A DNA stretch of 64,000 nt, taken from a virus (taxonomy: Duplodnaviria > Caudoviricetes). The notes under the pieces are model-generated. The model saw nothing but the letters and a program-made list of their open reading frames with translations. It was not told where the DNA came from and did no database searches. The position numbers and the translations under genes are program-made. How positions within the stretch are numbered: the first letter of the stretch is position 1; each line of letters opens with the position of its first letter. This document shows positions 4,387 through 64,000 of this stretch, one piece after another. The stretch lies in IMG/VR virus record IMGVR_UViG_3300027759_000044. The stretch is one strand, 5' to 3'.

Positions 4387-4400
4387 CTTAAAGAAATATT

Positions 4401-40981: not shown

Positions 40982-43038
40982 TGGACAGCAAAAAACAGTC
41001 AGGATATAAAAAACTATTTACATTAAAAGTATCTAATCCTAAACCCAAAGTTGATACTGATTTTGATGATAAACATACTAAAGTTATGGCAGCAATATTG
41101 CCATATGCTAGAATTAAACCACAAAAAAACTTAATTGATGTTGCTACTGAGGATATAAGTCGTAAAACAAGTGTAATGTATATGTTATTGCCTCAATGGG
41201 CAAAGATGTTCGCACCCTATAATGTAGCCAGACTTGTTGCCCTAACCAAAGCCGCTGGGTATAGAACCACCGCAGTTGATTTAAATGCTAAAGCAGGACA
41301 AGAATATTCTAAATGGGATATTGACTTTGATCCATGGAGTAGTGCAAGAGAATGGAAATGGTTAGAAAACACATATCATACAGAGCTACATAAACACTTA
41401 GAACCTTTGTTAGAAAAATACTTAGACTATATCGGTGAAGTTAAACCCGATGTTATTGGCTTTAGTATATATTATTGTAACGAAGAACCAACTAAGTGGA
41501 TGGCAAAAGAAATAAAAAAACGTTATCCGAACATTGTTATAATGGTAGGAGGTCCGCAATGTCATCAGAGTTATTGGACACCCATACCTGAGTTTGATTA
41601 CATAGTATCAGGTGAGGGTGAAAAGATGGTGTTAGAGATACTAGAAGAAATAGAATCTGGTGTAAGACCAACGGAACAAAAATGGTTAAGACAAGAAGAG
41701 GGTCAACGATTAAACTTAGATGCATTACCTAGACCTGATTACAGTCATTTCAACTTTAGAGAATATGCAATGCCCAATGGTGCAAACGCAGAACTAAGTA
41801 GAGGGTGTGTAGCTAAATGTGTGTTTTGTAGTGAGACACACTTTTGGAAATTTAGAGGAAGGCAAGCAACATCTATTATAGATGAAGTAAGTGATTTATA
41901 TCACAACTATGGAATTGATGTTATTTGGTTTTTAGATAGTTTAGTTAACGGCAATCTTAATGAACTTAGAGCATTTGCTAAGGGTGTTGTAGCTAGAGGA
42001 TTAAAAATACATTGGACCGGATACGCAAGATGTGATGGTCGTATGGATTTAACTTACTTAAAAGACCTAGCGGATTCCGGATGTTTAAGTTTAAGCTATG
42101 GTATTGAATCAGGATCAAATAAAGTATTAAAAGCTATGGATAAGGGAGTTACTGTTGAAGAAATAGAACAGAACTTAAGAGATGGAACTATAGTAGGAAT
42201 AGAAGCATTCACTAATTGGATTGTAGGTTTTCCGGCAGAAGAACACCAAGACTTCTATGAAACACTGACCTTAATTTGGAGAAATAGAAACAACAATATT
42301 ACAGATATTGCCGGTGGACATGGGTTTACTATTCCTCCGGATACCATTGTAGGACAAGCATCAGAACAATATGGAATCATTAAAGCTTATTACTTAAACA
42401 ATTGGATTAAGGAAGACTTTACCAATAGTAAACTACATAGATTAGTTAGAGTAAAGACGTTCAACATACTATTACACTATCTTGTAACCAAGCTTGATAT
42501 GGGTTGTAGTGGTATGAGACCAACAATTGAATCATTTTATACTCTTAATGTTAAAAACAACACACCACTAGAGATGGAGTTTGAGTCATTTGATTTCAAT
42601 ATAATCAATACAGGTAATAATTTTGCTGATTCATTGATGAATGAAATATGGCCTTTGTTAAGACTGTTTTGGAAAGCACAGGGCGCATATGATATTGAGA
42701 TTATATTTGACCCAGCCCAGGATTTAAATGAGTTTAGTGATAGATTAGCAGGAAACTATTCAGCTAGTTATAAGTTCTCAATAGATGAGAATGGTAATTG
42801 GAATGCTAATTTTGATTGTGTTTATAAGCAAGATGATAATGCATGGAGATATTCGGATTATTCGAGAGCAGATTCAGTTGCAGCCTCACGTGCTAGACAA
42901 TTAGCAGAACCAGACTCTGGTGGCATAAGTACCTGGACAATGGAAAAATATAAAAAACATATGACATTGTTAGATGAGTTAATATTAGTAGATTTCTCAT
43001 TTGAACACAAATACATTAGTAATGGAATTTGGAACTAA
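40981..43038 (+). CDS. Cobalamin-binding (class B) radical SAM protein
   Basis: B12-binding-like domain PDVIGFSIY...VGGPQ...VSGEGE, then SRGCVAKCVFC, YGIESGS, WIVGFP. ATG 40981 overlaps the upstream TGA. Confidence 0.88.
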   Translation: MDSKKQSGYKKLFTLKVSNPKPKVDTDFDDKHTKVMAAILPYARIKPQKNLIDVATEDISRKTSVMYMLLPQWAKMFAPYNVARLVALTKAAGYRTTAVDLNAKAGQEYSKWDIDFDPWSSAREWKWLENTYHTELHKHLEPLLEKYLDYIGEVKPDVIGFSIYYCNEEPTKWMAKEIKKRYPNIVIMVGGPQCHQSYWTPIPEFDYIVSGEGEKMVLEILEEIESGVRPTEQKWLRQEEGQRLNLDALPRPDYSHFNFREYAMPNGANAELSRGCVAKCVFCSETHFWKFRGRQATSIIDEVSDLYHNYGIDVIWFLDSLVNGNLNELRAFAKGVVARGLKIHWTGYARCDGRMDLTYLKDLADSGCLSLSYGIESGSNKVLKAMDKGVTVEEIEQNLRDGTIVGIEAFTNWIVGFPAEEHQDFYETLTLIWRNRNNNITDIAGGHGFTIPPDTIVGQASEQYGIIKAYYLNNWIKEDFTNSKLHRLVRVKTFNILLHYLVTKLDMGCSGMRPTIESFYTLNVKNNTPLEMEFESFDFNIINTGNNFADSLMNEIWPLLRLFWKAQGAYDIEIIFDPAQDLNEFSDRLAGNYSASYKFSIDENGNWNANFDCVYKQDDNAWRYSDYSRADSVAASRARQLAEPDSGGISTWTMEKYKKHMTLLDELILVDFSFEHKYISNGIWN

Positions 43039-43041
43039 ATA
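43035..43041 (+). promoter_or_regulatory. Late promoter element CTAAATA, 5 nt before ATG 43047
   Basis: CTAAATA-TCACT-ATG, overlapping the upstream stop. Confidence 0.55.
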
Positions 43042-43046
43042 TCACT

Positions 43047-43808
43047 ATGGATAAAATAGATATAGATTCATTTGATAGGATAGTAGCGTACGGTTGTAGT
43101 TATACTGCAGGTGATGAGTTGTTAGACCATGAAATATTAGGTATTAGTTTTGAAGCATGTAATAAATTAAAAAATTCTTATAAAAAATTATATCCTTATA
43201 ATTTTTATAAGAATTTACCAAAAGATGTTTTATATAAAATAGAAACAACCAACCCACAAGTGTCATGGGCCGGACAGTTAGCTAAACAGTTGAATAAACC
43301 TTTTCTAAATAGAGCAAAAGGTGGCTCTGGTATAGATGAAATTTTGTTCACTGTGGTATCTGATAGGACAAATAAAACCATATCGGATAGAGATTTGATT
43401 GTAGTTGGATTAACCTATCCAGAAAGAATACTTCATATAACTGATAACCATATATGTACTTTACATCTAGGTAATCAACATGGCTGGCCGTCGGCCGATA
43501 CACATAAAGCAAGTGTTGAATTATGGAATAATAGTAATACTTTGTTTAACTATTACAAATCATTATTCATCTTAACTAAATTGGGATTAAATATTAAATT
43601 ACAACCAATTTGCATGCCTTCATTTCAGGATATAAATAAAAAACTATGTGATCAGGTTATTATGCCTTTAAGGGATGAAATAGCAGACTACATGTTTTTT
43701 ACGACAGAAACGTTAAATGTAGATTTGCCATACAAGTGTGGTTTTGGACATGTAGCAATTGAGGCTCATATTGAGTTAGCAGACAAAATTCACAAACAAT
43801 ATTTTTAA
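43047..43808 (+). CDS. SGNH/GDSL-fold hydrolase or acyltransferase-like protein
   Basis: Block I AYGCSYTAG, block II RAKGGSG, C-terminal GH. The track start 43029 is TTG; ATG 43047 preferred. Confidence 0.6.
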   Translation: MDKIDIDSFDRIVAYGCSYTAGDELLDHEILGISFEACNKLKNSYKKLYPYNFYKNLPKDVLYKIETTNPQVSWAGQLAKQLNKPFLNRAKGGSGIDEILFTVVSDRTNKTISDRDLIVVGLTYPERILHITDNHICTLHLGNQHGWPSADTHKASVELWNNSNTLFNYYKSLFILTKLGLNIKLQPICMPSFQDINKKLCDQVIMPLRDEIADYMFFTTETLNVDLPYKCGFGHVAIEAHIELADKIHKQYF

Positions 43809-43810
43809 AC

Positions 43811-44641
43811 ATGAGTAATACTTTTAAATTAAACGACATAAAACGAGTAGTAGCTTACGGATGTAGTTATACAGCCGGAGTTGAGTTAGCAGACGCTGAT
43901 TTTATTCCGCATCTTACTTTAGACGAAATTAATGCTGAGAAAAAAGCATTAGGGCAACATCTGTTTTATTCAAAGTATCCTGCGGTACTGTTTCAAGCTC
44001 CTCCGGAAAAGAAACAACTTGAGTATAATAGGGCCTGGCCAAAACATTTGATTAATTATTTAGAACTGCCGTTAGATTATTTAAATCGTTCAATTGCCGG
44101 GGCATCAATGGAAGCGATCGTATTTGCTATAGAACATGATTTACACAATGGCATAATTAATGATGATGATTTGATAGTAGTAGGTGTAACTAGCGCAGAT
44201 AGGATATTAACAATTAATGATGAAGGCTCGCCTAGTAGCCTAGTATTACATGATTTAGATTCTAGATGGACTAGCCAAGAGTTTAGAAAAATGTTTACTA
44301 TGGAAATTGCTAACGATCATTGGTTATTATACAATTGGTATCGTTCAGTAAAGTACATTGATATGTTATCAAAAACACTTAACAATAGGATATTACAAGT
44401 ATATTTACACACCAATGATCAGGCCTATAAAAATGTATTCAATGTACATAATAATGAATTTTTAAACATAATCAATTCATTGGAAAATATTGAATCAATT
44501 TTGGATAAAGATTTGTCTTTTGGTAAGGTAGAACCATATTGGAGTCATAAAACAGAACACGGCTTTTATCATCCTTACGAGATTCTACATAAAAATTTAG
44601 CTAAGATATTAGCAGAAAAAATTAAAGAAAAATATATATGA
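43811..44641 (+). CDS. SGNH-fold protein, tandem paralog of 43047
   Basis: AYGCSYTAG, RSIAGAS, FYHP. Confidence 0.6.
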   Translation: MSNTFKLNDIKRVVAYGCSYTAGVELADADFIPHLTLDEINAEKKALGQHLFYSKYPAVLFQAPPEKKQLEYNRAWPKHLINYLELPLDYLNRSIAGASMEAIVFAIEHDLHNGIINDDDLIVVGVTSADRILTINDEGSPSSLVLHDLDSRWTSQEFRKMFTMEIANDHWLLYNWYRSVKYIDMLSKTLNNRILQVYLHTNDQAYKNVFNVHNNEFLNIINSLENIESILDKDLSFGKVEPYWSHKTEHGFYHPYEILHKNLAKILAEKIKEKYI

Positions 44642-45861
44642 AAAAAGAAACCTTTTGTTCCTTACCGTTTAGTGCATTATTCTTAGGAAGTGATGGTGGT
44701 GTAAGACCCTGTTGTTCATTACGAGGAGAGCTAGGTAATATCAATGATAATTCAATTGAGGAAATTATTCACGGGAAAATTGCTACTTCTATTAGACAAT
44801 CCATTATTAATAATGAGATGCATTCTATGTGTAGCCAATGCCAAGAATTAGAGTCCAGAGGCGCTAGAACAGAACGTTCAGGTACTATTGAAATGTTTGA
44901 CAAGTTTAAAGATTATACCGAAAAAGACTTTTTATTAGAAAAACTTGACCTACGTTGGAGTAATACTTGTAACTTAACATGTAATTATTGTTATGAATAT
45001 TTTAGTTCTAAATGGGCAGAAATTAAGGGTATTAAAGTAAACGCAAATAAAGAAACAGCAGAAGAAAAGGTATTCTCATTCATTGAACAAAATTTACAAG
45101 ACAATCCAAACGTAAGATTTAATGTTAACTTACTAGGAGGCGAACCTTTATTACAAAAACCTAACTCTAGGCTTATTGAGTTAATTAAAAACAATTCAGA
45201 TATATACATTTTGACTAACTTAACAGTACCTCTAGAAACTAATAAAGTAGCAAATTTACTGTTAGAAGGTAATAATGTTGCATGGGGAATTAGTTTTGAG
45301 ACAATAGGTAATAGATTTGAATATGTAAGAAAAGGTGGAGATTGGAACCAGTTAGTTAAAAATCTACGATATTTAAATTTAAACAAGGTTAAGCACATTG
45401 ATTCTCATCCTTTATACTGTGTGTATAGTGCGTTTAATTTAGTAGAATACTTTGAGTTTTTAGGAGAAGAAGGATATTTTCATAAACAATATTGGCAAGT
45501 ATTACAGAATATTCCCGGTCTTGATGTATTTCAATTACCTTACCCAATGAAGGTTAAAGCTATTAAAGAGTTAGAGACATGTTTTAATCGTTATGAAAAT
45601 ACTTTTGATTTGTCATTACTAAGATCCGTTCATAGTGGATTAGTAAGTTCTATTGACAAACAATATTGGGATAGTACCGCATGTTTTACATGGCTTAATG
45701 ATTTAGATAAATCTATACCTGGTCAAAAACAATCATTTATTGATAATTGGGCAGAATTGTATGATGATATGTTATCTACTTATAATTGGCTTACTGATAG
45801 TAATGGAAATATGAATCCTAAAACAGAATATGAGAGACCAATCTATGTTAGAAAGATATAA
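44638..45861 (+). CDS. Radical SAM protein with N-terminal Twitch-like domain
   Basis: FCSLPF...DGGVRPCC...CSQC, then CNLTCNYC, LGGEPL. Confidence 0.9.
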   Translation: MKKETFCSLPFSALFLGSDGGVRPCCSLRGELGNINDNSIEEIIHGKIATSIRQSIINNEMHSMCSQCQELESRGARTERSGTIEMFDKFKDYTEKDFLLEKLDLRWSNTCNLTCNYCYEYFSSKWAEIKGIKVNANKETAEEKVFSFIEQNLQDNPNVRFNVNLLGGEPLLQKPNSRLIELIKNNSDIYILTNLTVPLETNKVANLLLEGNNVAWGISFETIGNRFEYVRKGGDWNQLVKNLRYLNLNKVKHIDSHPLYCVYSAFNLVEYFEFLGEEGYFHKQYWQVLQNIPGLDVFQLPYPMKVKAIKELETCFNRYENTFDLSLLRSVHSGLVSSIDKQYWDSTACFTWLNDLDKSIPGQKQSFIDNWAELYDDMLSTYNWLTDSNGNMNPKTEYERPIYVRKI

Positions 45862-45864
45862 TAT

Positions 45865-47106
45865 ATGGCAGTTTTAAACTATGAGAATTACCCTCAAATA
45901 TTATCATGGGGCAAAAAGTGTAACGTAGATACTACTACTATAAAAATTCATAACGGAAACTATCCGTATCATAGATATTTAACCATACGTGATTATACTG
46001 ATACTGATTATTGGTATGCTGAAGTATTACACGGTGATGCTTTTTATTGTTTCCCCTTAACAGATTTAATGTCGGAAGAAATATTAAATAGAGTTCGAAA
46101 TAAAGAAGTAACTATACTAGTATGCCATCATCATGAGGCATACCATTGTATAATACATGATCTATATGAGTTTTTAATTGTAGCAAATAACATCCCTCCG
46201 GAACAGGTACTATTATTAACTAATAGTCCGGATATTATAACTGAAATAAACTTTGTTAGTTCAATGTTTAATTTAAATCCAATTAAGGTTGAATGGATGA
46301 CAGAATTTGAAATGTCAGCCTCGGTAAAAGCACAAGAGCTTAATTTTCCTGAAATGAAACATACCGTAGCTAAAACTTTAGTTGATAAAGAATATCCTAA
46401 AAAGTTTTTAAGTTTTAATGGCTTACATAGACCACATCGGTCATTATTGGTGTCTTTATTAGCCGCTATGGATGTATTACAGTATGGCCATGTAAGCTAT
46501 AACTCATACACATTTCCAAACTATAAAAACCCTTCATCAAAAGAAATATATGATTTAATGTTAACATGGACTGAAAGCTCTACAGAGTTTACTGAAATTT
46601 TAACAAATAATAAAGAAAAACTTAGCCAGTTAGATACAATGTATTTGGATGACGCTCCAAAAATAGATAAAGGTATAATGGTGGAATCTTTTACCAAAGA
46701 ATGCGTACCATTTTATGAAGAAACGTATTTTAGTGTAGTAACTGAAACACTGTGTATGAGGATACACAGCCATGACGGTCATACTGGAATAGGAAGATTA
46801 TTAAGTGAAAAAACGTTTAAAGCTATCCTCAATAAACATCCTTTTATATTAGTAGGAGTTCCAAAAACACTTCAATTATTAAAAGAGTTGGGATATAAAA
46901 CGTTTAGTCCATGGATTAACGAATCGTATGATGATGAGTATGATGATTGTAAAAGACTATTAATGATTGCCCAAGAGATTAAAAAACTAGCTGAGTTAAC
47001 ACCTGTTGAATTAACTGAATTTTTAAAATTTGCTACTGGTATAGTAGAACATAACTTTAAAGTAATACATTCTAAAAAGGGGCCCTGGGCTACCCCCTTA
47101 AATTAA
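45865..47106 (+). CDS. Putative glycosyltransferase-like protein (unclassified)
   Basis: C-terminal YFSVVTET...SEKTFKAI...HPFILVG...LGYKTF...ESYD resembles GT10-like GT-B C-terminal domains from phage glycan islands (recollection, not a search). Confidence 0.45.
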   Translation: MAVLNYENYPQILSWGKKCNVDTTTIKIHNGNYPYHRYLTIRDYTDTDYWYAEVLHGDAFYCFPLTDLMSEEILNRVRNKEVTILVCHHHEAYHCIIHDLYEFLIVANNIPPEQVLLLTNSPDIITEINFVSSMFNLNPIKVEWMTEFEMSASVKAQELNFPEMKHTVAKTLVDKEYPKKFLSFNGLHRPHRSLLVSLLAAMDVLQYGHVSYNSYTFPNYKNPSSKEIYDLMLTWTESSTEFTEILTNNKEKLSQLDTMYLDDAPKIDKGIMVESFTKECVPFYEETYFSVVTETLCMRIHSHDGHTGIGRLLSEKTFKAILNKHPFILVGVPKTLQLLKELGYKTFSPWINESYDDEYDDCKRLLMIAQEIKKLAELTPVELTEFLKFATGIVEHNFKVIHSKKGPWATPLN

Positions 47107-47453
47107 CCGTATTTCTTAACTTCTTTAACCGGATCATTAAGTAGTTCGGCCATTCTATTTTTTAATACATAACGTTCACTTAATATATTACGAACATGTA
47201 TGGCTCTACGACCTACTTCTTCTAAACTATATTTGTGTTCTACTGTATACTTTTTGAAATCGTCCTCAAGTTCCCAAACTCTAGCATGTACCTCATATAG
47301 TTTATCTAAATCTTCTTTGATTAAATTAAAATTTAACTCTTTAAGTTGGTCAGTGTAGAAGTCTAGTTCTTCTTTATTATCACCTAGCTTTGCAAACTTA
47401 AGTTTGGCAATACAATAACGGTCTACTAGTTCAATTACTGGAAATTTATACAT
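47103..47453 (-). CDS. Small helical protein, DUF6165-like
   Basis: P-x-x-ELVDRxxIxKLK N-terminus, LYEVHARVWELEDDF, and RYVLKNRMAELL resemble DUF6165 proteins of glycan loci. Confidence 0.5.
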   Translation of the reverse strand: MYKFPVIELVDRYCIAKLKFAKLGDNKEELDFYTDQLKELNFNLIKEDLDKLYEVHARVWELEDDFKKYTVEHKYSLEEVGRRAIHVRNILSERYVLKNRMAELLNDPVKEVKKYG

Positions 47454-48642
47454 TTGTTATTTCTACCTTAGGAAAATATTTTAAGAAAACATCTTGTTTC
47501 ATGTTACGTATAGTTTTTATTCTATTACTTATCTCAGTAAAGAAGTTCCAAGCTAATGGCATAAACACTATTTTATCATCTATATTAAACTCTGCTATAG
47601 CATCCGGCCCTTTAATTAATATCTTAGTGCCCGGAGTATATAAGTTTTGTTTTAACGGATTATCATCAATGATTAAATCTAACTGAATGTCTATATAGTT
47701 TAATAATGTATTGCCCTTTGCGGCCGCGCCATATCCTACTATCTTATATCCTTGTTGTTTGTATGTTAACAGCGTTTGTTTAAGGGTAACTATATTATTA
47801 TTCACGTTTTGTACCCATTTGGTATAAGTATCAACCTTATGTAAAGCTGACTCGGTCGTTAATGCATTTTGTATGTTAAACGGTTTACCCTCAATCTTGC
47901 TGAACACAAATACATAACTGGTACCATGAATGGGAGTGCGTATAGCTTCAACCAAATATAATCCTGCTCTCTTTGCTAATTTATTCATGCTATTGATATT
48001 AAAATAATTAACATGCTCATGGTAAATAGTATCAAACTCATCATTGAGTACCATATTAGCCTGACTAGTTTGTACAAACAATTTAGTATGATTGCTCATA
48101 AGTTCACGGCAGTTGATTAAAAATTCTAAAGGATTTGGATTATGTGCCATTACATTTTGAGCTGTTATAGCATCAAATCTACTATTCAACTTGGATAATA
48201 CTTTATCATTAAAAAAATCACAAATTATTGTATGATTCTTTGAACTAGTAGGATAGATATTTTCTGCTGGATCAACTCCCCACGTATCATATCCTAATGT
48301 TTTAAAACAATCTAATTGCGTACCGTCATTGCATCCTATATCTAACACCCGATTGTTAAGCTTAGTGCAATATTCATTAACATAGTTAGCAAACCAGTTA
48401 GAATAGTCTTTTAATGTATTGCTAGTACCACTAACATATAGATAGTTTTTATATATTAATTCAGGGTCAACTATAGTAGTTAATTGGAGGTGAAGGCAAT
48501 CTAAGCATAGATTGACACCTAACGGGAATGTTAGTTCATCTTCATCTTTAGTGGATAGATAGCTATTAGCTAAAGGTTGTTTCCCTAAATCTAAAGATGG
48601 GGTTAAGTTATGTGACCCGCAAGCCAAACATGTATTATTCAT
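47446..48642 (-). CDS. NDP-hexose C-methyltransferase (SAM-dependent)
   Basis: N-terminal Zn site CLACGS...CLDC, VLDIGCNDG, DTIYHEH, C-terminal YGAAAKGNTLL. Confidence 0.85.
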   Translation of the reverse strand: MNNTCLACGSHNLTPSLDLGKQPLANSYLSTKDEDELTFPLGVNLCLDCLHLQLTTIVDPELIYKNYLYVSGTSNTLKDYSNWFANYVNEYCTKLNNRVLDIGCNDGTQLDCFKTLGYDTWGVDPAENIYPTSSKNHTIICDFFNDKVLSKLNSRFDAITAQNVMAHNPNPLEFLINCRELMSNHTKLFVQTSQANMVLNDEFDTIYHEHVNYFNINSMNKLAKRAGLYLVEAIRTPIHGTSYVFVFSKIEGKPFNIQNALTTESALHKVDTYTKWVQNVNNNIVTLKQTLLTYKQQGYKIVGYGAAAKGNTLLNYIDIQLDLIIDDNPLKQNLYTPGTKILIKGPDAIAEFNIDDKIVFMPLAWNFFTEISNRIKTIRNMKQDVFLKYFPKVEITNV

Positions 48643-49540
48643 ATTTTAAAAATTGATTTCTGTTACTAAAGGTAGCATTGTCAAACTTTGTAGATAATTC
48701 ATCTACAATAGTATTAACTGTTTCTTTAAATTCAAAGTCAAAAGTTTTTTGAAACTTTGTCGTATCCATAATAAAGTCATATGAACCTGTAACATCAGGT
48801 TGAACATTGACATTACTTGATAATAATGAACTTATTTTATTACTAAGTCCTTCAACGGAATCATAAAAACTAGCTAGATTGTATATCCCTGCTATTGGTT
48901 TTTTAATGATAGTATCTATTGCCCTAGATATATCAGCAATACCTAAAATAGGACGAATAATATTTTTATTGTTAATAAGAATGTTTCCGTTCTCAATAGA
49001 ATGTTTGGTCATTGAGTTTATCATTAACTCTTCCCTAACGTTAGGACTCCACCCGTTAACGGTACCAAATCGTAACCCTACAATATTATACCCCTTAAGG
49101 ATCATTGATTGTGCAATATTATCAAGTGTGTATTTGGTCAAGTCATAGTTATTAATAGGTTTAAAAATAAGGTCAGTATCTTCATTTGTTTCTGAATGAG
49201 TATCACCATATACGCTTCCACTACTTGCATAGATAAGAGTTTGTCCCTTATCAAGTTTATGTGCTAAGTTGATGAAGTTATTGACATTATTATTCCAACT
49301 AGAGTTAGCTTCTCCCTGACACATTTTAACTGAACTATGACCGGCTAATAATACTACAACCTCAAACTTTGCTATATAATCTTTGGTAAGTGAGTTGTAA
49401 TCAATTACATTACTAAATCCTAAATTTTTACCAAACCAACATGTATCTATGCTTTGTATATCATAAGTATATTGTAGGTCGTGTGTTAGGCGGGAACCTA
49501 TATATCCGTTCCCACCTATTAATAGTATCTTTTTAGCCAT
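48635..49540 (-). CDS. NAD-dependent NDP-sugar epimerase/dehydratase (extended SDR)
   Basis: IGGNGYIG, YASSGSVYG, YDLTK (YxxxK), LRFGTVNG. Start ATG 49540 (or 49543). Confidence 0.88.
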   Translation of the reverse strand: MAKKILLIGGNGYIGSRLTHDLQYTYDIQSIDTCWFGKNLGFSNVIDYNSLTKDYIAKFEVVVLLAGHSSVKMCQGEANSSWNNNVNNFINLAHKLDKGQTLIYASSGSVYGDTHSETNEDTDLIFKPINNYDLTKYTLDNIAQSMILKGYNIVGLRFGTVNGWSPNVREELMINSMTKHSIENGNILINNKNIIRPILGIADISRAIDTIIKKPIAGIYNLASFYDSVEGLSNKISSLLSSNVNVQPDVTGSYDFIMDTTKFQKTFDFEFKETVNTIVDELSTKFDNATFSNRNQFLKYE

Positions 49541-49545
49541 CATTA

Positions 49546-49552
49546 TATTTAT
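49546..49552 (-). promoter_or_regulatory. Late promoter element on the minus strand driving the inverted cassette
   Basis: Reverse complement reads ATAAATA-TAATG-ATG(49540). Confidence 0.6.
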
Positions 49553-49569
49553 TGACTATTTTAGGGTCG

Positions 49570-49576
49570 ATAAATA
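49570..49576 (+). promoter_or_regulatory. Late promoter element, divergent from 49546-49552
   Basis: GATAAATA in the intergenic gap upstream of 49641. Confidence 0.55.
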
Positions 49577-49640
49577 ATCGTATTAAGGTAATAACAGATT
49601 ATAATACTGATAAAAACGGAACATTAATAGAAAGATAACT

Positions 49641-49736
49641 ATGTTTATAATACGCTGGATTAAAAATATTATTAGAGAATACAAATATCGTAAACGAATT
49701 AAAGAATTACGTAAACGTGACCCATTTATTTATTAA
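49641..49736 (+). CDS. 31-aa basic peptide (not in ORF track)
   Basis: MFIIRWIKNIIREYKYRKRIKELRKRDPFIY*; first ORF after the late element; amphipathic basic helix. Confidence 0.55.
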   Translation: MFIIRWIKNIIREYKYRKRIKELRKRDPFIY

Positions 49737-49748
49737 TAGGTATACTTA

Positions 49749-50579
49749 ATGAGCCTTGCCAAATTAAATACCTTAATGTCTGATAACATAGATGATTTTA
49801 AAAAGTTTAGCATAGTTGCTACACGCAAAGATTTGTCTATTCAAACCGATATGAATGTACACTATTTTAGTCCATTAGACTATACACATAGAGAAACATG
49901 GAACTATGAAGATTTTAGTTACGATATATCTAAGTTAGGGTTTAGAGACAATTCAAATATTCCATCTGATATAGATATAGCTGCATTTGGTTGTAGTTTT
50001 ACTTTTGGTCAAGGTCTACCTAAAAATGTGTTATGGCATCATTTATTGGGAGATAGTTTACAACTATCTACGTATAACTTTGGGCAGCCTGCCGCAAGTG
50101 TAAAAACAGTATTAGATATATTTTCGTTAACGTGTAATCATACTAAAATAAAACATGCTATTTTTTTACTCCCACCATTTTTTAGATTACAGATAGCAAG
50201 CAAGCATAAGCATTCAGACAATGTTGAATTGATTCCTATAATACCTAATTATTCTAGTAATTTGGAAAATTCATATATGTTAGATGCGTCGGCAATTTAT
50301 AAATCATTGCCCAACGAAGAATTATGTAAAAATTTCAAAGATAATGTATATCTTATGGAATATATTGCTAAAAAAAATAATATTAAAATTTATTATTCTT
50401 CATGGGATAATTCAACGTATGAGATATTGCTTCAAATGAAATTTAAAAGTGCAATATTGTTACCAAGATGGATTGATTATACTACACCTGAGTTAAAAAG
50501 TTTGGCAAGAGATATGTTACATCCCGGACCGTCAAATCATTTGAAATGGGCTGAAGAAATTAAACCTTATATAATATAA
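49749..50579 (+). CDS. SGNH-fold protein (third copy)
   Basis: AFGCSFTFG, FGQPAAS, DMLHPG (DxxH). Confidence 0.65.
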   Translation: MSLAKLNTLMSDNIDDFKKFSIVATRKDLSIQTDMNVHYFSPLDYTHRETWNYEDFSYDISKLGFRDNSNIPSDIDIAAFGCSFTFGQGLPKNVLWHHLLGDSLQLSTYNFGQPAASVKTVLDIFSLTCNHTKIKHAIFLLPPFFRLQIASKHKHSDNVELIPIIPNYSSNLENSYMLDASAIYKSLPNEELCKNFKDNVYLMEYIAKKNNIKIYYSSWDNSTYEILLQMKFKSAILLPRWIDYTTPELKSLARDMLHPGPSNHLKWAEEIKPYII

Positions 50580-52054
50580 TGAACTACATAGGTATTTCAT
50601 CTGGATTCCATGATGCAGCTGTTAGTGTTATAGATGATACTGGCAACATACTCTTTGCTGGGCACAGTGAACGATATAGTAAAAACAAACATGATAAAGA
50701 TATATGTGACGGATTATTAACCGACGCACTATCACATACCAATTATGTGAATTTACAATATCATTACTATGAACGCCCGTGGTTAAAGTCATTGCGTCAA
50801 TTACGTAGTGGAGAAGGTTTTGTTTGGCCAACATGGAATAATTTATTAGGTACTGTATACAATGACATGAGTAAACCTAACATACACACTCATAATCATC
50901 ACTTAAGTCACGCAGCCGCAGGGTTTCAAACAAGTATTTTTCAAGATGCCACTATTGTAGTAATTGATGCTATTGGTGAGTTTGATACTATCAGTATTTG
51001 GGATGCTAGATATATTAATGGAATAGCAAAGTATAAAAAACTATGGGGACAACGATATCCAGATAGTATTGGGTTGTTTTACTCAGCAATGACTAAACGA
51101 GCAGGTCTTAAACCATTAGATGAAGAATATATACTGATGGGTATGGCAGCATATGGTAACACTAGACCTTTGCGAGAAATGTCTAATACTTTAATAGAAT
51201 CTTTTAGCAACCTCACATTCAAACAAAACCTACATGTAGGTGTATCTGATGATTTTGCCAAAGGTGCGGACAATATGGACATTGCACATAGCGCACAATT
51301 GATAGTTGAACAAATGATAATGGCAGTTATTAGTAAAGCACGAATGCTAGGTGGTAGTAGGAACTTAGTGTATGGCGGAGGAGTAGCATTAAATTGTTTA
51401 GCAAATAGATTGTTAGGAGAATATTATGACAACATTTGGATTATTCCTAATCCTGGCGATGCTGGTTCTAGTCTTGGAGCCGCTGCTTTGGGCTACGGTA
51501 AACAGCTTAATTGGATTGATGCTTATCTTGGTCATAATATCCCTGGTGACTACCCTGTTAATAAGTTATTGGATCATCTTGTTACCACTGGCATTGTTGG
51601 TGTGGCTAGTGGTCGTGCTGAATTTGGACCTAGAGCCCTTGGACATAGAAGCTTACTTGCAGATCCAAGAGGATCAGCAATAAAAGATAAGGTAAATGAG
51701 ATTAAACGTAGACAAAAGTTTAGACCATTTGCTCCTATTATATTAGAAGAATATGCTGATACTTACTTTGATATGCCTAAAGGTTTTACTAACAGTCGAT
51801 ATATGCAAGTTATCAGTAGATGTAGAGTACCTGAATTATTCCCTGCTATTGTTCACCATGACAATACCAGCCGTGTTCAAACAGTACCAAAAGACGGGTC
51901 GGGTATTAGAGAACTATTAGAAAAGTGGTATGTGTTAACTGGATGTCCAATGTTGTTGAATACATCATTAAACATACGTGGTGAGCCGATGGTTAATGAT
52001 AGAGCAGATGCTGATAGATTTGAAAAACTTTATAATGTCCCTGTAATTTCATAA
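50579..52054 (+). CDS. Carbamoyltransferase, NodU/CmcH family
   Basis: GFHDAA, HHLSHAAA, VVIDAIGE, GGVALNC, PGDAG, GRAEFGPRALGHRSLLADP, FRPFAP, LNTSLN. Confidence 0.92.
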   Translation: MNYIGISSGFHDAAVSVIDDTGNILFAGHSERYSKNKHDKDICDGLLTDALSHTNYVNLQYHYYERPWLKSLRQLRSGEGFVWPTWNNLLGTVYNDMSKPNIHTHNHHLSHAAAGFQTSIFQDATIVVIDAIGEFDTISIWDARYINGIAKYKKLWGQRYPDSIGLFYSAMTKRAGLKPLDEEYILMGMAAYGNTRPLREMSNTLIESFSNLTFKQNLHVGVSDDFAKGADNMDIAHSAQLIVEQMIMAVISKARMLGGSRNLVYGGGVALNCLANRLLGEYYDNIWIIPNPGDAGSSLGAAALGYGKQLNWIDAYLGHNIPGDYPVNKLLDHLVTTGIVGVASGRAEFGPRALGHRSLLADPRGSAIKDKVNEIKRRQKFRPFAPIILEEYADTYFDMPKGFTNSRYMQVISRCRVPELFPAIVHHDNTSRVQTVPKDGSGIRELLEKWYVLTGCPMLLNTSLNIRGEPMVNDRADADRFEKLYNVPVIS

Positions 52055-59684: not shown

Positions 59685-59706
59685 TTGTCACTAATTTGTC
59701 ACATAT
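59685..59706 (+). promoter_or_regulatory. Pho-box-like direct repeat
   Basis: TTGTCAC-TAAT-TTGTCAC-ATAT: 11-bp-periodic 7-mers matching the PhoB consensus CTGTCAT-A(A/T)A(A/T)-CTGTCA(C/T). Confidence 0.75.
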
Positions 59707-59712
59707 CTCTCA

Positions 59713-59719
59713 ATAAATA
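59713..59719 (+). promoter_or_regulatory. Late promoter element downstream of the Pho-like box
   Basis: ATAAATA-CTAT-ATG(59724). Confidence 0.6.
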
Positions 59720-59723
59720 CTAT

Positions 59724-60566
59724 ATGAAAACATATCGTTCTATTTTTGTGAGTGATGTACATTTAGGTACCAAAGATAGTCAGGCTGATAAGTTAAATAA
59801 CTTTTTAAAACACAATACATGTGATACACTTTATCTAGTAGGTGATATTATTGATGCATGGCGTATACAGCAAAACAAGTGGCGCTGGAAACAAAGCCAT
59901 ACCAATGTAGTACGTAGAGTGTTAGGCCATGCTAAACGTGGTACTAGAGTTGTTTATATCGCTGGCAATCACGATGAGTTTTTAAGACCTATGATTCCAT
60001 ATGATTTTAGTTTTGGTCTTATAGAAATTCATAATCAAATAGAACATATAGGTATAGATGGAAAGCATTATCTAGTCACACACGGTGATTTATTTGATGG
60101 AATTACACGGCTAGCACCTTGGCTAGCATTTTTAGGAGACAAAGCATATGATTTCATTTTATCGCTCAATAGTAAGTTCAATTGGATACGTCATCGTTTT
60201 GGTTTTGGGTACTTTAGTCTTAGCAAATACCTTAAACACAAAGTAAAAAAAGCCATAGATTTTATGTTTCAGTTTGAAAAGAATCTAGCTGGGTATTGTA
60301 AGAAGCGAGGATTTGATGGTGTAATATGTGGTCATATACACCATGCTGAAATAAAAACTATAGATGGTGTCATTTACATGAATGATGGTGACTGGGTTGA
60401 ATCTTGTACAGCACTAGTAGAACATCATGATGGACGTTGGGAAATAGTTACTTGGACTAGGGAGAAGGACAATGTGGGTATTAATAATTCTAGCAGTTCA
60501 CATGAACGACCCAAAGGACATACCGGGACGAGTGGAGTTGACATTTCAGGACAAACTCTCATGTGA
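59724..60566 (+). CDS. Metallophosphoesterase of the LpxH-like/PlcP family (candidate phospholipase C)
   Basis: SDVHLG, LVGDIID, AGNHD, THGD, CGHIHH, NDGDWVESCTAL. The track start 59685 (TTG) lies in the Pho box; ATG 59724 preferred. Confidence 0.85.
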   Translation: MKTYRSIFVSDVHLGTKDSQADKLNNFLKHNTCDTLYLVGDIIDAWRIQQNKWRWKQSHTNVVRRVLGHAKRGTRVVYIAGNHDEFLRPMIPYDFSFGLIEIHNQIEHIGIDGKHYLVTHGDLFDGITRLAPWLAFLGDKAYDFILSLNSKFNWIRHRFGFGYFSLSKYLKHKVKKAIDFMFQFEKNLAGYCKKRGFDGVICGHIHHAEIKTIDGVIYMNDGDWVESCTALVEHHDGRWEIVTWTREKDNVGINNSSSSHERPKGHTGTSGVDISGQTLM

Positions 60567-60642
60567 ACAAAGTTTACAAAGTATGACATATTGGCTAAAG
60601 TTTAGTCAATTTAAAATTGAAGGAAAGTGTATAAAAAAATGA
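60472..60642 (+). CDS. 56-aa protein with hydrophobic N-terminus and two Cys (not in ORF track)
   Basis: SD GGAGAAGG; MWVLIILAVHMNDPKDIPGRVELTFQDKLSCEQSLQSMTYWLKFSQFKIEGKCIKK*; ends in an ATGA overlap with the GT2 start. Confidence 0.65.
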   Translation: MWVLIILAVHMNDPKDIPGRVELTFQDKLSCEQSLQSMTYWLKFSQFKIEGKCIKK

Positions 60643-61349
60643 AACTCAGTGATAAAATTACTATTGTTGTACCTTGTAAGAATGAAGAAAATTATATTCA
60701 TTATTTGTTAGATTCGTTGCGTAGTCAAGATATTGGTGATACTAGAGTTATCATTGCTGACTGTTCTACTGATAATACTAGACAAGTCATTAACGATAAC
60801 AGTGATTCATTGAATATTGAAATCATTGAGGGTGGTCCTGTTTCTATTGCTAAGAATAACGGAGCACGATTAGTTACTACTCCTTATATACTATTCATTG
60901 ATGCTGATGTTCGTTTCTTTAAAAATAATGTCATTTATGATGCTGTTAATAAAATTGACTCTATGAATTTGGATCTTGTTGGATTGAATATCAAATGTTA
61001 TGACAAAGACCCAAGAGCAATGCTCGGTTTCACTCTTTTTAATACAATAAACAACACATTGAAATATTTTTCACCCTTTGCAGTTGGAGCATTTATGCTA
61101 ACTCGTAAAGATAAGTTTATAGAATACGGTGGATTCCCCGAACAGTTCTCAACTTCCGAAGATTATTTTTTGTCAAGGAAATATAGCCCTAAAAAGTTCA
61201 GAATTGTTAAACATCACTTTGGTCAAGATAGTCGTAGATTTAAAAAGATGGGATATCTTGGTATGGGTAAATATTTAATAAAAAATTTTGTTAATCGCAA
61301 TAATAAAAAATACTGGGATAGTTTAGACTCATCTAAATATTGGTCGTGA
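60639..61349 (+). CDS. Glycosyltransferase family 2
   Basis: ITIVVPCKNEE, IIADCSTD, AKNNGA, LFIDAD, SED, DSRRF. ATG 60639 is coupled to the upstream TGA. Confidence 0.88.
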   Translation: MKLSDKITIVVPCKNEENYIHYLLDSLRSQDIGDTRVIIADCSTDNTRQVINDNSDSLNIEIIEGGPVSIAKNNGARLVTTPYILFIDADVRFFKNNVIYDAVNKIDSMNLDLVGLNIKCYDKDPRAMLGFTLFNTINNTLKYFSPFAVGAFMLTRKDKFIEYGGFPEQFSTSEDYFLSRKYSPKKFRIVKHHFGQDSRRFKKMGYLGMGKYLIKNFVNRNNKKYWDSLDSSKYWS

Positions 61350-61350
61350 T

Positions 61351-61372
61351 TTGTAACATCACTGTCACACAA
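61351..61372 (+). promoter_or_regulatory. Pho-box-like direct repeat
   Basis: TTGTAAC-ATCA-CTGTCAC-ACAA; the proximal half-site is a perfect consensus match. Confidence 0.65.
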
Positions 61373-61378
61373 TATCTA

Positions 61379-61385
61379 TTAAATA
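61379..61385 (+). promoter_or_regulatory. Late promoter element (TTAAATA) followed by a 5' hairpin
   Basis: Predicted +1 G61391 starts hairpin GTGCCA-TGG-TGGCAC; SD AAGGAG 61421-61426. Confidence 0.55.
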
Positions 61386-61432
61386 ATTATGTGCCATGGT
61401 GGCACACAAACTAACCCCACAAGGAGAAACCC

Positions 61433-62080
61433 ATGAGATTAGAAGATTTAGCCGCAAGATTAGTAGCTGTAGAAGCCAAATTAGCAAACCTAACTGGTAC
61501 AACAGTTAATACAGACAGTGCCACAAGCATTGAAGAACTAGACGCAAGACTTTCTGTAGTTGAAGTTCAGGTTGACCAATTAATCATTGAGAAAACAGAA
61601 GCTCACATTGGCGCTATTGTTGCCGCAGTAGCAAATGACGCACCAGTTGACGTAGCAGAAGTAGTTGCATTGTCATCAAGCGTATTCCATGAAGAAGCCG
61701 CTAGCATCGTTACTGATGTTGTTACAGCACAAACTGAAGCTGATCCAATTGTTCATACTGAAGTTGCTGATATTGTTTCAGCCGCTGTCATGGCAGTTGT
61801 TACAGCAGATCCAGAAGTTGTTATTGATCCAGTCGCAATCACAGAAGCTATCATGCAAGCAGTTGCTGATATGCCAGCCCCGACTCCAGAAGTAGCTCAA
61901 CAAGTTGCTGATGCAGTTGCGGAAGTTATCGCTACAGCTACAGGTGTTGAAGCAGTTGCCCCAGAAGTAACACAACAAATTGTGGAAGCAATCGCTACTC
62001 CTGCAGATCCTGCATTAGATGCAATTGAAGCACGTTTGAATATTGCTGAAGCAAAAGTTGATTTCTTGTTGGGAAAGTAA
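61433..62080 (+). CDS. Acidic Ala/Val-rich protein with terminal coiled coils, function unknown
   Basis: Strong SD; 215 aa without Cys, Trp or Tyr; three RLxxhE heptad motifs. Confidence 0.8.
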   Translation: MRLEDLAARLVAVEAKLANLTGTTVNTDSATSIEELDARLSVVEVQVDQLIIEKTEAHIGAIVAAVANDAPVDVAEVVALSSSVFHEEAASIVTDVVTAQTEADPIVHTEVADIVSAAVMAVVTADPEVVIDPVAITEAIMQAVADMPAPTPEVAQQVADAVAEVIATATGVEAVAPEVTQQIVEAIATPADPALDAIEARLNIAEAKVDFLLGK

Positions 62081-62162: not shown

Positions 62163-62186
62163 AAGGGCCCTATAGGGCTCTTTTTT
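62163..62186 (+). terminator. Intrinsic terminator
   Basis: AAGGGCCC-TATA-GGGCTCTT stem-loop running into a T-tract (62181-62186). Confidence 0.75.
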
Positions 62187-62195
62187 ATTGGATAA

Positions 62196-62217
62196 TAGTA
62201 AAACAATTGTCATATTG
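62196..62217 (+). promoter_or_regulatory. Weaker Pho-box-like repeat
   Basis: TAGTAAA-ACAA-TTGTCAT-ATTG; proximal half-site near consensus, distal half degenerate. Confidence 0.5.
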
Positions 62218-62223
62218 CCTAGC

Positions 62224-62230
62224 ATAAATA
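62224..62230 (+). promoter_or_regulatory. Late promoter element (ATAAATA)
   Basis: 7 nt before ATG 62238. Confidence 0.6.
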
Positions 62231-62237
62231 CAGTACT

Positions 62238-63056
62238 ATGAAAAAACTACTACTATTATTATTCGTACTGATTAGTTCAGTTGTCCACGCACAATTACCA
62301 ACTAGTACTGTACCACTACCCGCTGATATTGCCGCAATTAAGAAAGCAAATGTTCTTATTGTGGCAATGACCAAAAAAGATAACCCTCCCTTCTTCAGTG
62401 GTGGCGAGGATGATATCAAAGGTCTTGACGTTGAAATTGCACGAAGAATAGGCGTAATGCTTGGAGTTCCTGTAAAATTTAGACGAGATGCCGAAAGTTT
62501 TGCTGAGGTTGTTGAACAAGTACGAGACGGGCGAGCAGATGTTGCAGTAAGTAAATTATCTGTCACAGCCCCTAGACTACAGGTTGTTAGATTCAGTGAT
62601 CCATATATTAAACTAAGACAAAGTTTAGTTATCAATCGTTTATGGTTAAGTCAAAACAGTCAAGGTAAAGAAACATATCAAGTCATTAGAGATTTTAACG
62701 GTAAGATAAGTTTTATTCGTAACTCAAGCTATGATACATTTGCCCGTATTAATTTCCCTAATGCTGTATTTCTTCCAGAAGATAAGTGGGACGTAATTAT
62801 CGATAAAGTTACACGTGGTGATATCGCAGCCGCTTATCGTGATGAATTTGAGATTAAGAAAATTGCTTTTGAAAAGCCAGATGCGGCAATCACAACAAAA
62901 AGTATTACAATCTCTGATAGCGTGGATAATATTGCTGTAGCAGTCAATCCTAAATCACTACAATTGTTAAGCATTATTAATTACGTTATTAAAAATGAAT
63001 ACAACAACATTGACACTAAAAAGTTAATGGATCGCTACAAAGCTGAAAAGAAATAA
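62238..63056 (+). CDS. Periplasmic amino-acid-type substrate-binding protein (SBP family 3)
   Basis: Signal peptide MKKLLLLLFVLISSVVHA; NPPFF...GLDVEIARRIG...ADVAVSKLSVTAPRLQVVRFSDPY. Confidence 0.85.
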   Translation: MKKLLLLLFVLISSVVHAQLPTSTVPLPADIAAIKKANVLIVAMTKKDNPPFFSGGEDDIKGLDVEIARRIGVMLGVPVKFRRDAESFAEVVEQVRDGRADVAVSKLSVTAPRLQVVRFSDPYIKLRQSLVINRLWLSQNSQGKETYQVIRDFNGKISFIRNSSYDTFARINFPNAVFLPEDKWDVIIDKVTRGDIAAAYRDEFEIKKIAFEKPDAAITTKSITISDSVDNIAVAVNPKSLQLLSIINYVIKNEYNNIDTKKLMDRYKAEKK

Positions 63057-63065
63057 GGACCTAGT

Positions 63066-64000
63066 ATGACAACCGCACATTTAAAATCGTTTTTAACAAG
63101 CCCGTGGACCATACTTGGTTCTATTATAGTGGGCGTACTGAGCGGCGTTTACGCACCTGAGTTCAGCATAAACTTTGACAGTATTGGTAGTATCTATATC
63201 AGCTTACTTAAAGTTGTTGTTCTTCCATTCTTATTAGCAACTATATTAGTTGGTATAATTGGCTTACTACAAAAAGAAGGTAGTCAACAACTAATTCGTA
63301 AAATCATTATTGGTTTTGTGTCTAGTATGTTCTTAGCCGCAATCATTGGTGTTGGTACAGTTCTTGTTACAGGAACTGAAATGACTCCTGAAAAGAAAAC
63401 ACAACTTGGTGTACTAGTTAATACTAAGGATAGTGGAACTGATTTGAACATCACTCTTAAAGAACCAATGCCTATAGCACCAGAAGTTAGTGCTGGTAAA
63501 ATGGCAGAGAAGTTTATTCCAGAGAATATTTTTAATACACTAAACAATGGTGAAAGTTTGAAGATTGTTATATTCTGTTTAATCTTTGGTGTTGCCCTTG
63601 GTCATCTACAAACTGAAGGTCAAAAGATGTTGGTTGAAGTACTTAAAAGCATTCAACAAGCAAGTATCAGCATCTTTAAGTTCTTAAACTACTTCTTACC
63701 AATAGCATTGTTAGCAATGATTGCCGCTCAAGTTGGTAAAGTAGGTGTAGGTATATTCTTAACTATGTTTGACTTTGTGTTCCAGCAATTCATTGGTGGA
63801 CTATTAGTAGTTGCCGCAGGTACTGCTATGATTTGGTGGAGGTCTGGATTAAGTCTCTCCACTGTTATCAAAGAAACTAAAGAAACATTGATTGTTGCTG
63901 TTAGTTCACGTAGCTCTTTAGCTTGCATCCCATACGCACAAGAAGCATTACATAAACTACACTTTGACAAAGGTGGAGTTGAATTAACAGTTCCGTTAAG
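63066..64000 (+). CDS. Dicarboxylate/amino-acid:cation symporter (DAACS, GltP/DctA family), runs off the window end (not in ORF track)
   Basis: SD AAGGA, ATG 63066; open to the end. YISLLKVVVLPF, FIPENIF, IVIFCLIFGVAL, LPIALLAMIAAQV and the HP1 serine motif SSRSSLACIP. Confidence 0.88.
   Translation, partial: MTTAHLKSFLTSPWTILGSIIVGVLSGVYAPEFSINFDSIGSIYISLLKVVVLPFLLATILVGIIGLLQKEGSQQLIRKIIIGFVSSMFLAAIIGVGTVLVTGTEMTPEKKTQLGVLVNTKDSGTDLNITLKEPMPIAPEVSAGKMAEKFIPENIFNTLNNGESLKIVIFCLIFGVALGHLQTEGQKMLVEVLKSIQQASISIFKFLNYFLPIALLAMIAAQVGKVGVGIFLTMFDFVFQQFIGGLLVVAAGTAMIWWRSGLSLSTVIKETKETLIVAVSSRSSLACIPYAQEALHKLHFDKGGVELTVPL

Follow-up and report, generated by a model that had tools for sequence, protein, structure and literature searches.

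The closest described relatives of the locus reported here are the bacterial PlcP–Agt operons of Sinorhizobium meliloti (SMc00171), Pseudomonas aeruginosa (PA3219–PA3218), Phaeobacter MED193, and SAR11 HTCC7211, in which a Pho box is followed by plcP and then by a glycosyltransferase gene. In P. aeruginosa, PA3218 lies immediately downstream of PA3219 (PMC8528852), and the glycosyltransferase Agt1 yields monoglucosyl-diacylglycerol. The validated PlcPs are just 46–47% identical to one another (PMC8528852). The same order, Pho box, plcP-like gene, glycosyltransferase gene, is found at positions 59685–61349 of the viral record IMGVR_UViG_3300027759_000044 (Caudoviricetes), of which a stretch of 64,000 nucleotides (64 kb), hereafter the window, was analyzed. 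The span contains two genes on the plus strand, the first encoding a calcineurin-type metallophosphoesterase and the second a glycosyltransferase of family GT2. Judged from sequence, the locus is a lipid-renovation operon of the bacterial PlcP–glycosyltransferase type carried by jumbo phages, with a host-type Pho box and a phage-typical GT2 that replaces Agt.

On balance, we favor the view that these two genes make up an auxiliary metabolic cassette carried by a freshwater jumbo phage and composed of a PlcP and a GT2 that glycosylates diacylglycerol (DAG), controlled by the PhoB of the host and devoted to phosphorus recycling. The proposed mechanism is as follows. Host PhoB, bound to the Pho box in the −35 position, would confine expression of the cassette to cells starved of phosphate. 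The PlcP-type enzyme, from a family of Mn-dependent, LpxH-like phospholipases C on which bacteria rely when phosphate runs short, would then cleave membrane phospholipids into DAG and a phospho-head group, and the GT2, which occupies the slot of the bacterial Agt of family GT4, would glycosylate the released DAG to a phosphorus-free, β-linked glycolipid. The phosphorus of the head groups would thereby be freed for the very large DNA demand of the phage, while the membrane would stay intact until lysis. The original prediction for this locus was a membrane-lipid remodeling module, and it is supported as far as the sequence reaches, by the PlcP family, the Pho box, and the slot shared by GT2 and GT4.

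The phage origin of the cassette is supported by its relatives. At least 596 stretches in a scan of IMG/VR contain a relative of the phosphoesterase, and the best of these, 96% identical, is located in a 348.7-kb record that is 100% complete according to CheckV, encodes a terminase, and keeps the flanking genes of the window, including those for a binding protein and a symporter. Five related records of 331–525 kb are 95–100% complete (CheckV), each with a large terminase and PhoH. In the window itself, PHROG matches include a virion structural protein and a Nol-like carbamoyltransferase, the latter an auxiliary metabolic gene (AMG). Because the 96%-identical locus and those of four further relatives occur in terminase-encoding IMG/VR records that CheckV rates as complete or nearly so, the sequence evidence supports a jumbo phage as the replicon. 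A bacterial-island reading, prompted by the binding protein and symporter at the end of the window, was rejected, since the same genes are present in complete phage records of IMG/VR. Window DNA was found in freshwater metagenomes from 15 studies. The nearest “genome” matches (L002–L006, metagenome-assembled genomes [MAGs] that serve as GTDB representatives) are contigs of the window’s own phage group in unrelated bins; their labels, Haliscomenobacter, Polynucleobacter, Fischerella, and Gammaproteobacteria MAG, look like bin contamination and were not accepted as hosts. The hosts are probably heterotrophic Gram-negative bacteria.

The limits of the two genes had to be revised. The mechanical open reading frame (ORF) of the phosphoesterase opens at TTG 59685, the start given in the original prediction, and its 13 extra codons contain the repeat TTGTCAC-TAAT-TTGTCAC. 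Homologues align only from residue 14–17 of this ORF, and an in-frame stop is located at most 60 nt 5′ of the equivalent methionine in 49 of 60 distinct relatives. For these reasons, and because the extra codons are those of the Pho box, the sequences place the true start at ATG 59724, TTG 59685 being an artefact of ORF calling by which the Pho box was read as coding sequence. The plcP-like gene thus extends from 59724 to 60566 (plus strand) and encodes a 280-residue PlcP-family metallophosphoesterase, a predicted phospholipase C according to profiles, residues, tree, and model; this start leaves an intergenic promoter region of 41 nt. The GT2 gene follows at 60639–61349 on the same strand and encodes a soluble protein of 236 residues with a GT-A fold, of the inverting type. 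The two genes had been described as overlap-coupled; here a spacer of 72 nt (60567–60638) separates the stop at 60566 from ATG 60639, or 60 nt if the alternative start GTG 60627 is used. In relatives, plcP and the glycosyltransferase gene overlap by as much as 17 nt or stand up to 129 nt apart. Co-transcription of plcP and GT2 is likely, because the spacer contains neither a terminator-like site nor a second Pho-box promoter.

The Pho box (59685–59702, plus strand) consists of two copies of the 7-bp sequence TTGTCAC, repeated directly at a period of 11 bp. It is the only exact match, with zero mismatches, to YTGTCAY-N4-YTGTCAY in the 64 kb, and shuffled sequences contain a mean of 0.01. A TAAATA element (59714–59719), either −10-like or a phage promoter element, begins 11 nt past the box and ends 4 nt before the ATG. 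This geometry, an 18-bp box, 11 nt, and a −10-like hexamer, appears to fit the PhoB-activated type of promoter, in which the repeats take the place of the −35 element and the −10 element is some 10 bp away. The pstS promoter of Escherichia coli has a similar spacing between box and −10. The layout also matches that of the validated plcP–agt operons with a CTGTCATNNNNCTGTCAT box, including the promoter type of P. aeruginosa plcP–agt1 (PMC8528852; PMC4796936).

The box is conserved and specific. Within 100 nt 5′ of plcP, 42 of 63 distinct phage loci have the repeat TGT[C/A]A[C/T]-N5-TGT[C/A]A[C/T], one mismatch being allowed; of the GT4-linked loci, 18 of 19 have it. The background rate in these loci is 0.0065 per 100 nt. 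Composites of box, 11 nt, and TAAATA number three in the window, with 0.39 expected by chance. Five relatives (330–525 kb) were also scanned as whole genomes, with reversed sequences as the control: the exact composite occurs one or two times per genome and is absent from the reversed controls, and in the four genomes that have it before plcP, this copy is among the one or two matches. One of them, the 359-kb genome G344 (an IMG/VR relative of L131), contains only two exact composites, one before plcP and one about 80 nt before pstS (C1:149595–150570). Because this second copy precedes pstS, it offers independent support, at the level of sequence, for the hypothesis that the composite marks phosphate-starvation genes. 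In G340, G342, and G343 the second composite is the site homologous to 61352–61385 of the window. The statement that the best Pho box of the window lies directly upstream of the phosphoesterase is therefore borne out: no other site matches exactly, relatives have conserved the box, and it is near-unique in whole phage genomes.

TAAATA is located 4–7 nt from the ATG in two of the transcription units of the window, unit 1 (plcP–GT2) and unit 3 (the binding protein and symporter), from which we infer that the mRNAs of both units, that of plcP included, would be leaderless or nearly so. The hexamer also stands 5′ of other genes in the window and may be the phage’s own promoter element. One lineage of short-form plcP copies has no Pho box.

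This pattern of presence and absence bears on the purpose of the cassette. The same enzymes could serve to remodel the host envelope, for superinfection exclusion, for resistance to grazers or to membrane stress, or for stabilizing the cell during the long latent period of a jumbo phage, with phosphate recovery as a side effect. In bacteria, lipid remodeling alters phage attachment and susceptibility to predators (PMC9938194; PMC9457565; PMC9804370), and the many phage plcP–glycosyltransferase copies that have no Pho box fit a function that is not tied to phosphate. However, in the clade of the window the cassette shares a near-unique promoter motif with pstS, and its Pho-box layout is the same as that of bacterial phosphorus-starvation operons, so that we regard a primary role in envelope remodeling as rather unlikely.

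For a partner enzyme acting on DAG, the evidence comes from gene neighborhoods. Among 80 IMG/VR loci, plcP is followed by a gene of the window’s GT2 family in 62 and by a GT4 gene in 17, and one locus ends too early; a glycosyltransferase thus follows plcP in every one of these loci that extends far enough. The flanking genes vary among the loci, which suggests that the plcP–glycosyltransferase pair moves as a unit. A 378-kb relative has, in the partner slot, a GT4 with Glyco_transf_4 and Glycos_transf_1 domains that shares 40% identity (E 8e-83) with P. aeruginosa Agt1. (In this relative, L075, genes for CsgF- and CsgG-like proteins and for one curlin-repeat-like protein are located at 1859–7236, just 5′ of the plcP–GT4 pair.) The idea of a “GT2 instead of GT4” agrees with these sister phages, which carry the Agt-type enzyme in the same slot after plcP. 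Within the phage clade of the phosphoesterase tree, copies linked to GT2 are interspersed with copies linked to GT4, and the latter form the basal branches, a pattern suggesting that GT2 displaced Agt in this clade. Such a swap in one slot amounts to a natural experiment for identifying a new family of lipid glycosyltransferases.

Among cellular relatives, plcP–GT4 pairs were found in Rhodobiaceae, Rhodospirillaceae, SAR202/Dehalococcoidia, and many other Pseudomonadota, and these neighborhoods agree with the plcP neighborhood types of Sebastian et al. (PMC4796936). In another Pseudomonadota genome (L191, 3997–5781), the gene after the plcP homologue encodes a bifunctional OlsF-like acyltransferase (Acyltransf_2 and Acetyltransf_5), an aminolipid partner and not a glycolipid one. 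Relatives of the GT2 were collected by an exhaustive HMMER search, which gave 66 cluster representatives at E ≤ 1e-30. Five of the six 50%-cluster representatives with a readable context (42–47% identical) adjoin a metallophosphoesterase on phage-like contigs, with the gene order reversed in one. The four divergent partners with readable DNA are 38–45% identical to the window phosphoesterase and have GNHDE and CGHIH. One GT2 relative, P0133, lacks a neighboring phosphoesterase. In 250 Bacteroidota genomes, no member of the window GT2 family was found at E ≤ 1e-20 except on a misbinned contig.

The presence of a GT2 gene directly 3′ of the phosphoesterase, as first described, is confirmed by a match to PF00535 (E 5e-21; 75.9 bits for a cut-off of 23.3); a weak match to Pfam GT21 was also obtained (22.7 bits, cut-off 21.7). 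With its PF00535 domain and GT-A fold, the enzyme is not of the Agt type, which is GT4/GT-B (Glyco_transf_4 and Glycos_transf_1). Across 62 homologues D88 and D90 (the DxD motif) and D175 are invariant, E174, which completes an ED motif, is nearly so (≥90%), and a segment RRFKK is conserved. The structural model has a mean predicted local distance difference test (pLDDT) score of 95.6 and a GT-A fold. Given this score and the conservation of DxD and ED in the family, the GT2 looks active, as, on sequence and model, do the enzymes of the cassette in general. The protein has no transmembrane stretch, and its last 41 residues, which include 10 Lys/Arg and only 3 Asp/Glu, form a basic, aromatic C-terminal segment that would be compatible with attachment to the interface of an anionic membrane. 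Since GT2 enzymes invert, the product should be β-linked.

DAG is the most likely acceptor. The principal competing idea is that membrane lipid is a substrate for the PlcP-type enzyme alone, and that the GT2 modifies a polyprenyl-linked glycan, lipopolysaccharide (LPS) or a teichoic-like polymer, or a protein or DNA of the phage. In keeping with this, its nearest solved or Swiss-Prot folds are glycosyltransferases of teichoic acids, O-antigen, N-glycans, and carotenoids, the window is rich in other sugar-modifying genes, and P0133 stands alone. More closely, the fold neighbors are TarS/TarP, PcManGT, AglE, Rv2957, CrtQ, and PgaC, so that both lipid-acceptor enzymes (AglE, Rv2957, CrtQ, and PcManGT) and teichoic-acid enzymes are represented. 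Against such another target, the pairing with plcP persists among relatives as distant as about 42% identity and even where the gene order is inverted, and an Agt-type GT4 takes the place of the GT2 in the same slot of sister phages; we therefore consider such a target distinctly unlikely.

The phosphoesterase matches the Pfam family Metallophos (E 4e-11), so that the metallophosphoesterase with GNHD announced for this locus is indeed present, and its calcineurin-like metal motifs (DxH, GD, GNH[D/E], H, and GHxH) are intact. With the curated LpxH equivalog models NF003743 and TIGR01854 it scores 45.3 bits for a cut-off of 134 and 33.4 for 190. Over 81 Pseudomonadota genomes, the scores of the LpxH model are bimodal, 213–361 bits (20 genomes) versus 30–60 bits, and eight genomes contain both classes. 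Over its full length, the window protein shares 39–60% identity with the low-scoring class, whereas true LpxH is 20–27% identical over partial alignments. Genomes of Hyphomonas, Hellea, a Rhizobiales MAG, and a Dehalococcoidia MAG contain a homologue and no LpxH-model match over the cut-off; in three of them the model’s only match is the PlcP-type homologue, and in Hyphomonas there is none at E 0.001.

Residues were compared in an alignment of 148 family members with 20 LpxH sequences. The seven metal ligands (D11, H13, D41, N82, H120, H204, and H206) are present in the window protein, invariant in the 148 members, and common to LpxH, and the catalytic site is thus intact. Eight positions are fixed differently between the two groups; the residues H83, E85, R88, C202, I205, Y218, and N220 of the window protein correspond to R, F, G, H, T, R, and V in LpxH. 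H83 belongs to the GNHD motif, which is GNRD in the LpxH of Klebsiella pneumoniae and P. aeruginosa.

Both validated PlcP references were recovered from PLSDB and identified by synteny. The window protein is 56.7% identical (E 1e-78) to the orthologue of P. aeruginosa PA3219, whose gene is placed between csaA/helix-turn-helix and the glycosyltransferase (Agt1) plus cyaB, and 45% identical (E 1e-84) to the orthologue of S. meliloti SMc00171, whose gene adjoins sinI/sinR; by gene order, we take the csaA/helix-turn-helix…cyaB neighborhood to be that of PA3219 and the sinI/sinR neighborhood to be that of SMc00171. The two PLSDB records, CP090106.1 (L208) and NZ_CP042268.1 (L207), a 3.72-Mb S. meliloti replicon with sinI/sinR that is labeled pSymB and a 167-kb P. 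aeruginosa “plasmid” with azoR3-csaA-PA3219-cyaB, look like mislabeled or chromosomal pieces. In a maximum-likelihood tree of 79 sequences that included PlcP and LpxH, LpxH is split from the PlcP family with 100/100 support. Both validated PlcPs fall inside the family and bracket the phage clade of the window, which comprises 23 rows and is monophyletic at 100/99; two more phage lineages, L198/L201 and Pelagibacter phage Mosig, are separate. According to sequence scores, signature residues, and the phylogeny with the two validated PlcPs, the phosphoesterase is to be assigned to the PlcP family and not to LpxH, in agreement with the first description of it as PlcP-like, and a phospholipase C activity that releases DAG is predicted for it.

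In the AlphaFold model of the phosphoesterase (pLDDT 77.7), the core is modeled with confidence, residues 125–195 form a helical lid, and residues 248–280 form a disordered tail; the top 25 fold matches of the model in the PDB are all LpxH. As modeled, the enzyme appears to share the lid architecture with which LpxH holds a diacyl lipid, yet it belongs to another family. The idea that it is itself an LpxH-type UDP-2,3-diacylglucosamine hydrolase, and that the pair modifies lipid A or LPS, draws on this nearest solved fold, on the label LpxH given to the family by JGI, GenBank, and PLSDB, and on the listing of viral “lpxH” under LPS biosynthesis in AMG surveys (PMC10653327; PMC9611531), but it is largely refuted, and in our estimate highly improbable, given the scores below the curated cut-offs and their bimodal distribution, the H in place of R in GNxD with seven other discriminating residues, the 100/100 separation from LpxH with nesting among validated PlcPs, and the homologues in genomes without LpxH, including Dehalococcoidia.

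Several points weigh against a phosphate-controlled, DAG-glycosylating cassette. First, DAG as the predicted acceptor is deduced from gene-neighborhood logic, that is, from the conserved pairing with plcP and the Agt swap; fold searches with the GT2 (pdb, afdb_swissprot, and afdb_clusters) returned generic GT-A neighbors with no acceptor assignment, as did a PDB sequence search and an Atlas search, which gave generic GT-A neighbors only. In addition, no cellular plcP–GT2 pair with this GT2 family was found in the fetched loci and genomes searched. Second, the Pho box is absent from about one third of the related phage plcP copies and from all four divergent phosphoesterase–GT2 pairs examined, and therefore phosphate control of the phage pair is not universal. 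TAAATA also resembles a phage late-promoter element, and transcription may be independent of PhoB and of sigma-70. Recognition of the phage box by host PhoB is a prediction from sequence. Third, short contigs in lake metatranscriptome libraries match plcP (85–90% alike), the GT2, and the acidic ORF that follows it, with DNA carry-over possible; as short RNA-library contigs that show no transcription start, they are weak evidence of expression. Finally, the substrates, the PhoB dependence, the GT2 acceptor, and the benefit to the phage are predictions, made from sequence and gene order.

The neighboring genes suggest that the cassette may belong to a larger set. A second composite of Pho box and TAAATA is located at 61352–61385 (plus strand), 5′ of an ORF (61433–62080) for an acidic protein of 215 residues; this unit (61352–62080) has, besides its own composite, a 5′ hairpin and a strong Shine–Dalgarno sequence, and its product has no family match. 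A terminator-like hairpin with a T-run (62163–62182, plus strand) closes this unit 2. A third, weaker composite with two mismatches follows at 62197–62230 on the same strand, 5′ of a binding-protein gene (62238–63056) and of a symporter gene that starts at 63066. This last part of the window (62197–64000) thus encodes a family-3 solute-binding protein and, 9 nt further, a sodium:dicarboxylate (DAACS) symporter, and the pair is kept in L076, L086, and L147.

From this arrangement, a broader hypothesis can be put forward, tentatively and with rather less than even confidence: that lake jumbo phages run a small Pho regulon of their own via host PhoB, from hybrid Pho-box/TAAATA promoters and with leaderless transcripts. 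Its members would be plcP with its glycosyltransferase, the acidic coiled-coil protein, the binding protein and DAACS symporter, and, in some genomes, pstS. At its core would be a phage-specific PlcP–GT2 pair, in which Agt has given way to a small, soluble, inverting GT2 whose product is a β-glycosyl-DAG foreign to the bacterial pathway, so that host phospholipids would supply the phosphorus of phage DNA.

Elsewhere in the window, a single ORF of 5917 codons occupies 11766–29519, and neighboring proteins of 887–1141 residues have no Pfam match. The region 35704–52054, probably a sugar or glycan modification pathway, encodes five radical-SAM enzymes, of which one has a B12-binding domain and another SPASM, together with a sugar C-methyltransferase, an NAD-dependent epimerase, and the Nol-like carbamoyltransferase.

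Phosphorus is often limiting for the microbes of lakes and oceans, and by our own arithmetic each copy of a 350-kb phage genome contains about 0.7 million phosphorus atoms. Known phage responses to phosphorus stress act on uptake (pstS, phoA). If the recycling of lipid phosphorus proposed here is correct, phages would have a second route, in which the phospholipids of the host membrane are cannibalized while the membrane is kept intact. The gene family is common, and the labels “LpxH” and “LPS biosynthesis” in databases and AMG surveys hide its likely role. In the literature searched, viral “lpxH” is mentioned solely in listings of AMGs for LPS biosynthesis (PMC10653327; PMC9611531), and searches for phage or viral PlcP found no paper linking PlcP to phages or AMGs.

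An isolated phage nevertheless carries a member of the family: Pelagibacter phage Mosig EXVC030M (MT647606) encodes a “putative UDP-2,3-diacylglucosamine hydrolase” that is a PlcP-family protein 49% identical to that of the window, divergently oriented from pstS. Unlike the cassette of the window, this copy has no adjacent glycosyltransferase, and in the tree it represents a separate acquisition; the genome announcement of Mosig does not discuss it. The intergenic region shared by its plcP and pstS (L001, 7851–8000) contains TTAACA-N5-TTAACA repeats with an 11-bp period as well as AATAAATA, 7 nt 5′ of the ATG, an arrangement that may constitute another kind of Pho box.

Control of phage genes by the starvation response of the host has a precedent in cyanophages, whose phosphate-stress genes (pstS and phoA) are reportedly driven by the host PhoBR, a finding attributed to Zeng and Chisholm in 2012. 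As in those phages, the genes of the window stand behind a host-type Pho box, the starvation sensor of the host would be in control, and in a sister phage this motif also precedes pstS. Unlike in those phages, the target would be the internal pool of membrane phospholipid and not external phosphate, and the carriers are freshwater jumbo phages.

For the second enzyme, the nearest parallels are DAG glycosyltransferases with a GT-A fold, namely cyanobacterial MgdA/Sll1377, Mycoplasma MG517, and rhizobial Pgt. These set a precedent for DAG glycosylation by GT2/GT21-type enzymes and for a glycosyltransferase other than Agt after plcP; in bacteria, Pgt-type enzymes are found next to plcP (PMC4796936). 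They are larger and membrane-embedded, in contrast to the small, soluble phage GT2 with its basic C-terminal tail, and are likened to it by family.

As for LpxH, the phage phosphoesterase has in common with it the calcineurin-like core, the seven metal ligands, and a helical lid at the same place of insertion; it differs by its low identity (17–27%), by GNHD in place of GNRD and seven further positions, by scores below the cut-offs, and by its separate clade. The bacterial PlcP–Agt operon remains the closest system: the phage phosphoesterase is 45–57% identical to the validated PlcPs and falls inside their clade, and sister phages even have an Agt orthologue that is 40% identical to Agt1. The phage version differs from the bacterial operon in being encoded by a jumbo phage, in having a 236-residue GT2 (GT-A, inverting) where bacteria have a GT4 (GT-B, retaining), and in a promoter that joins the Pho box to a phage-style TAAATA beside the ATG.

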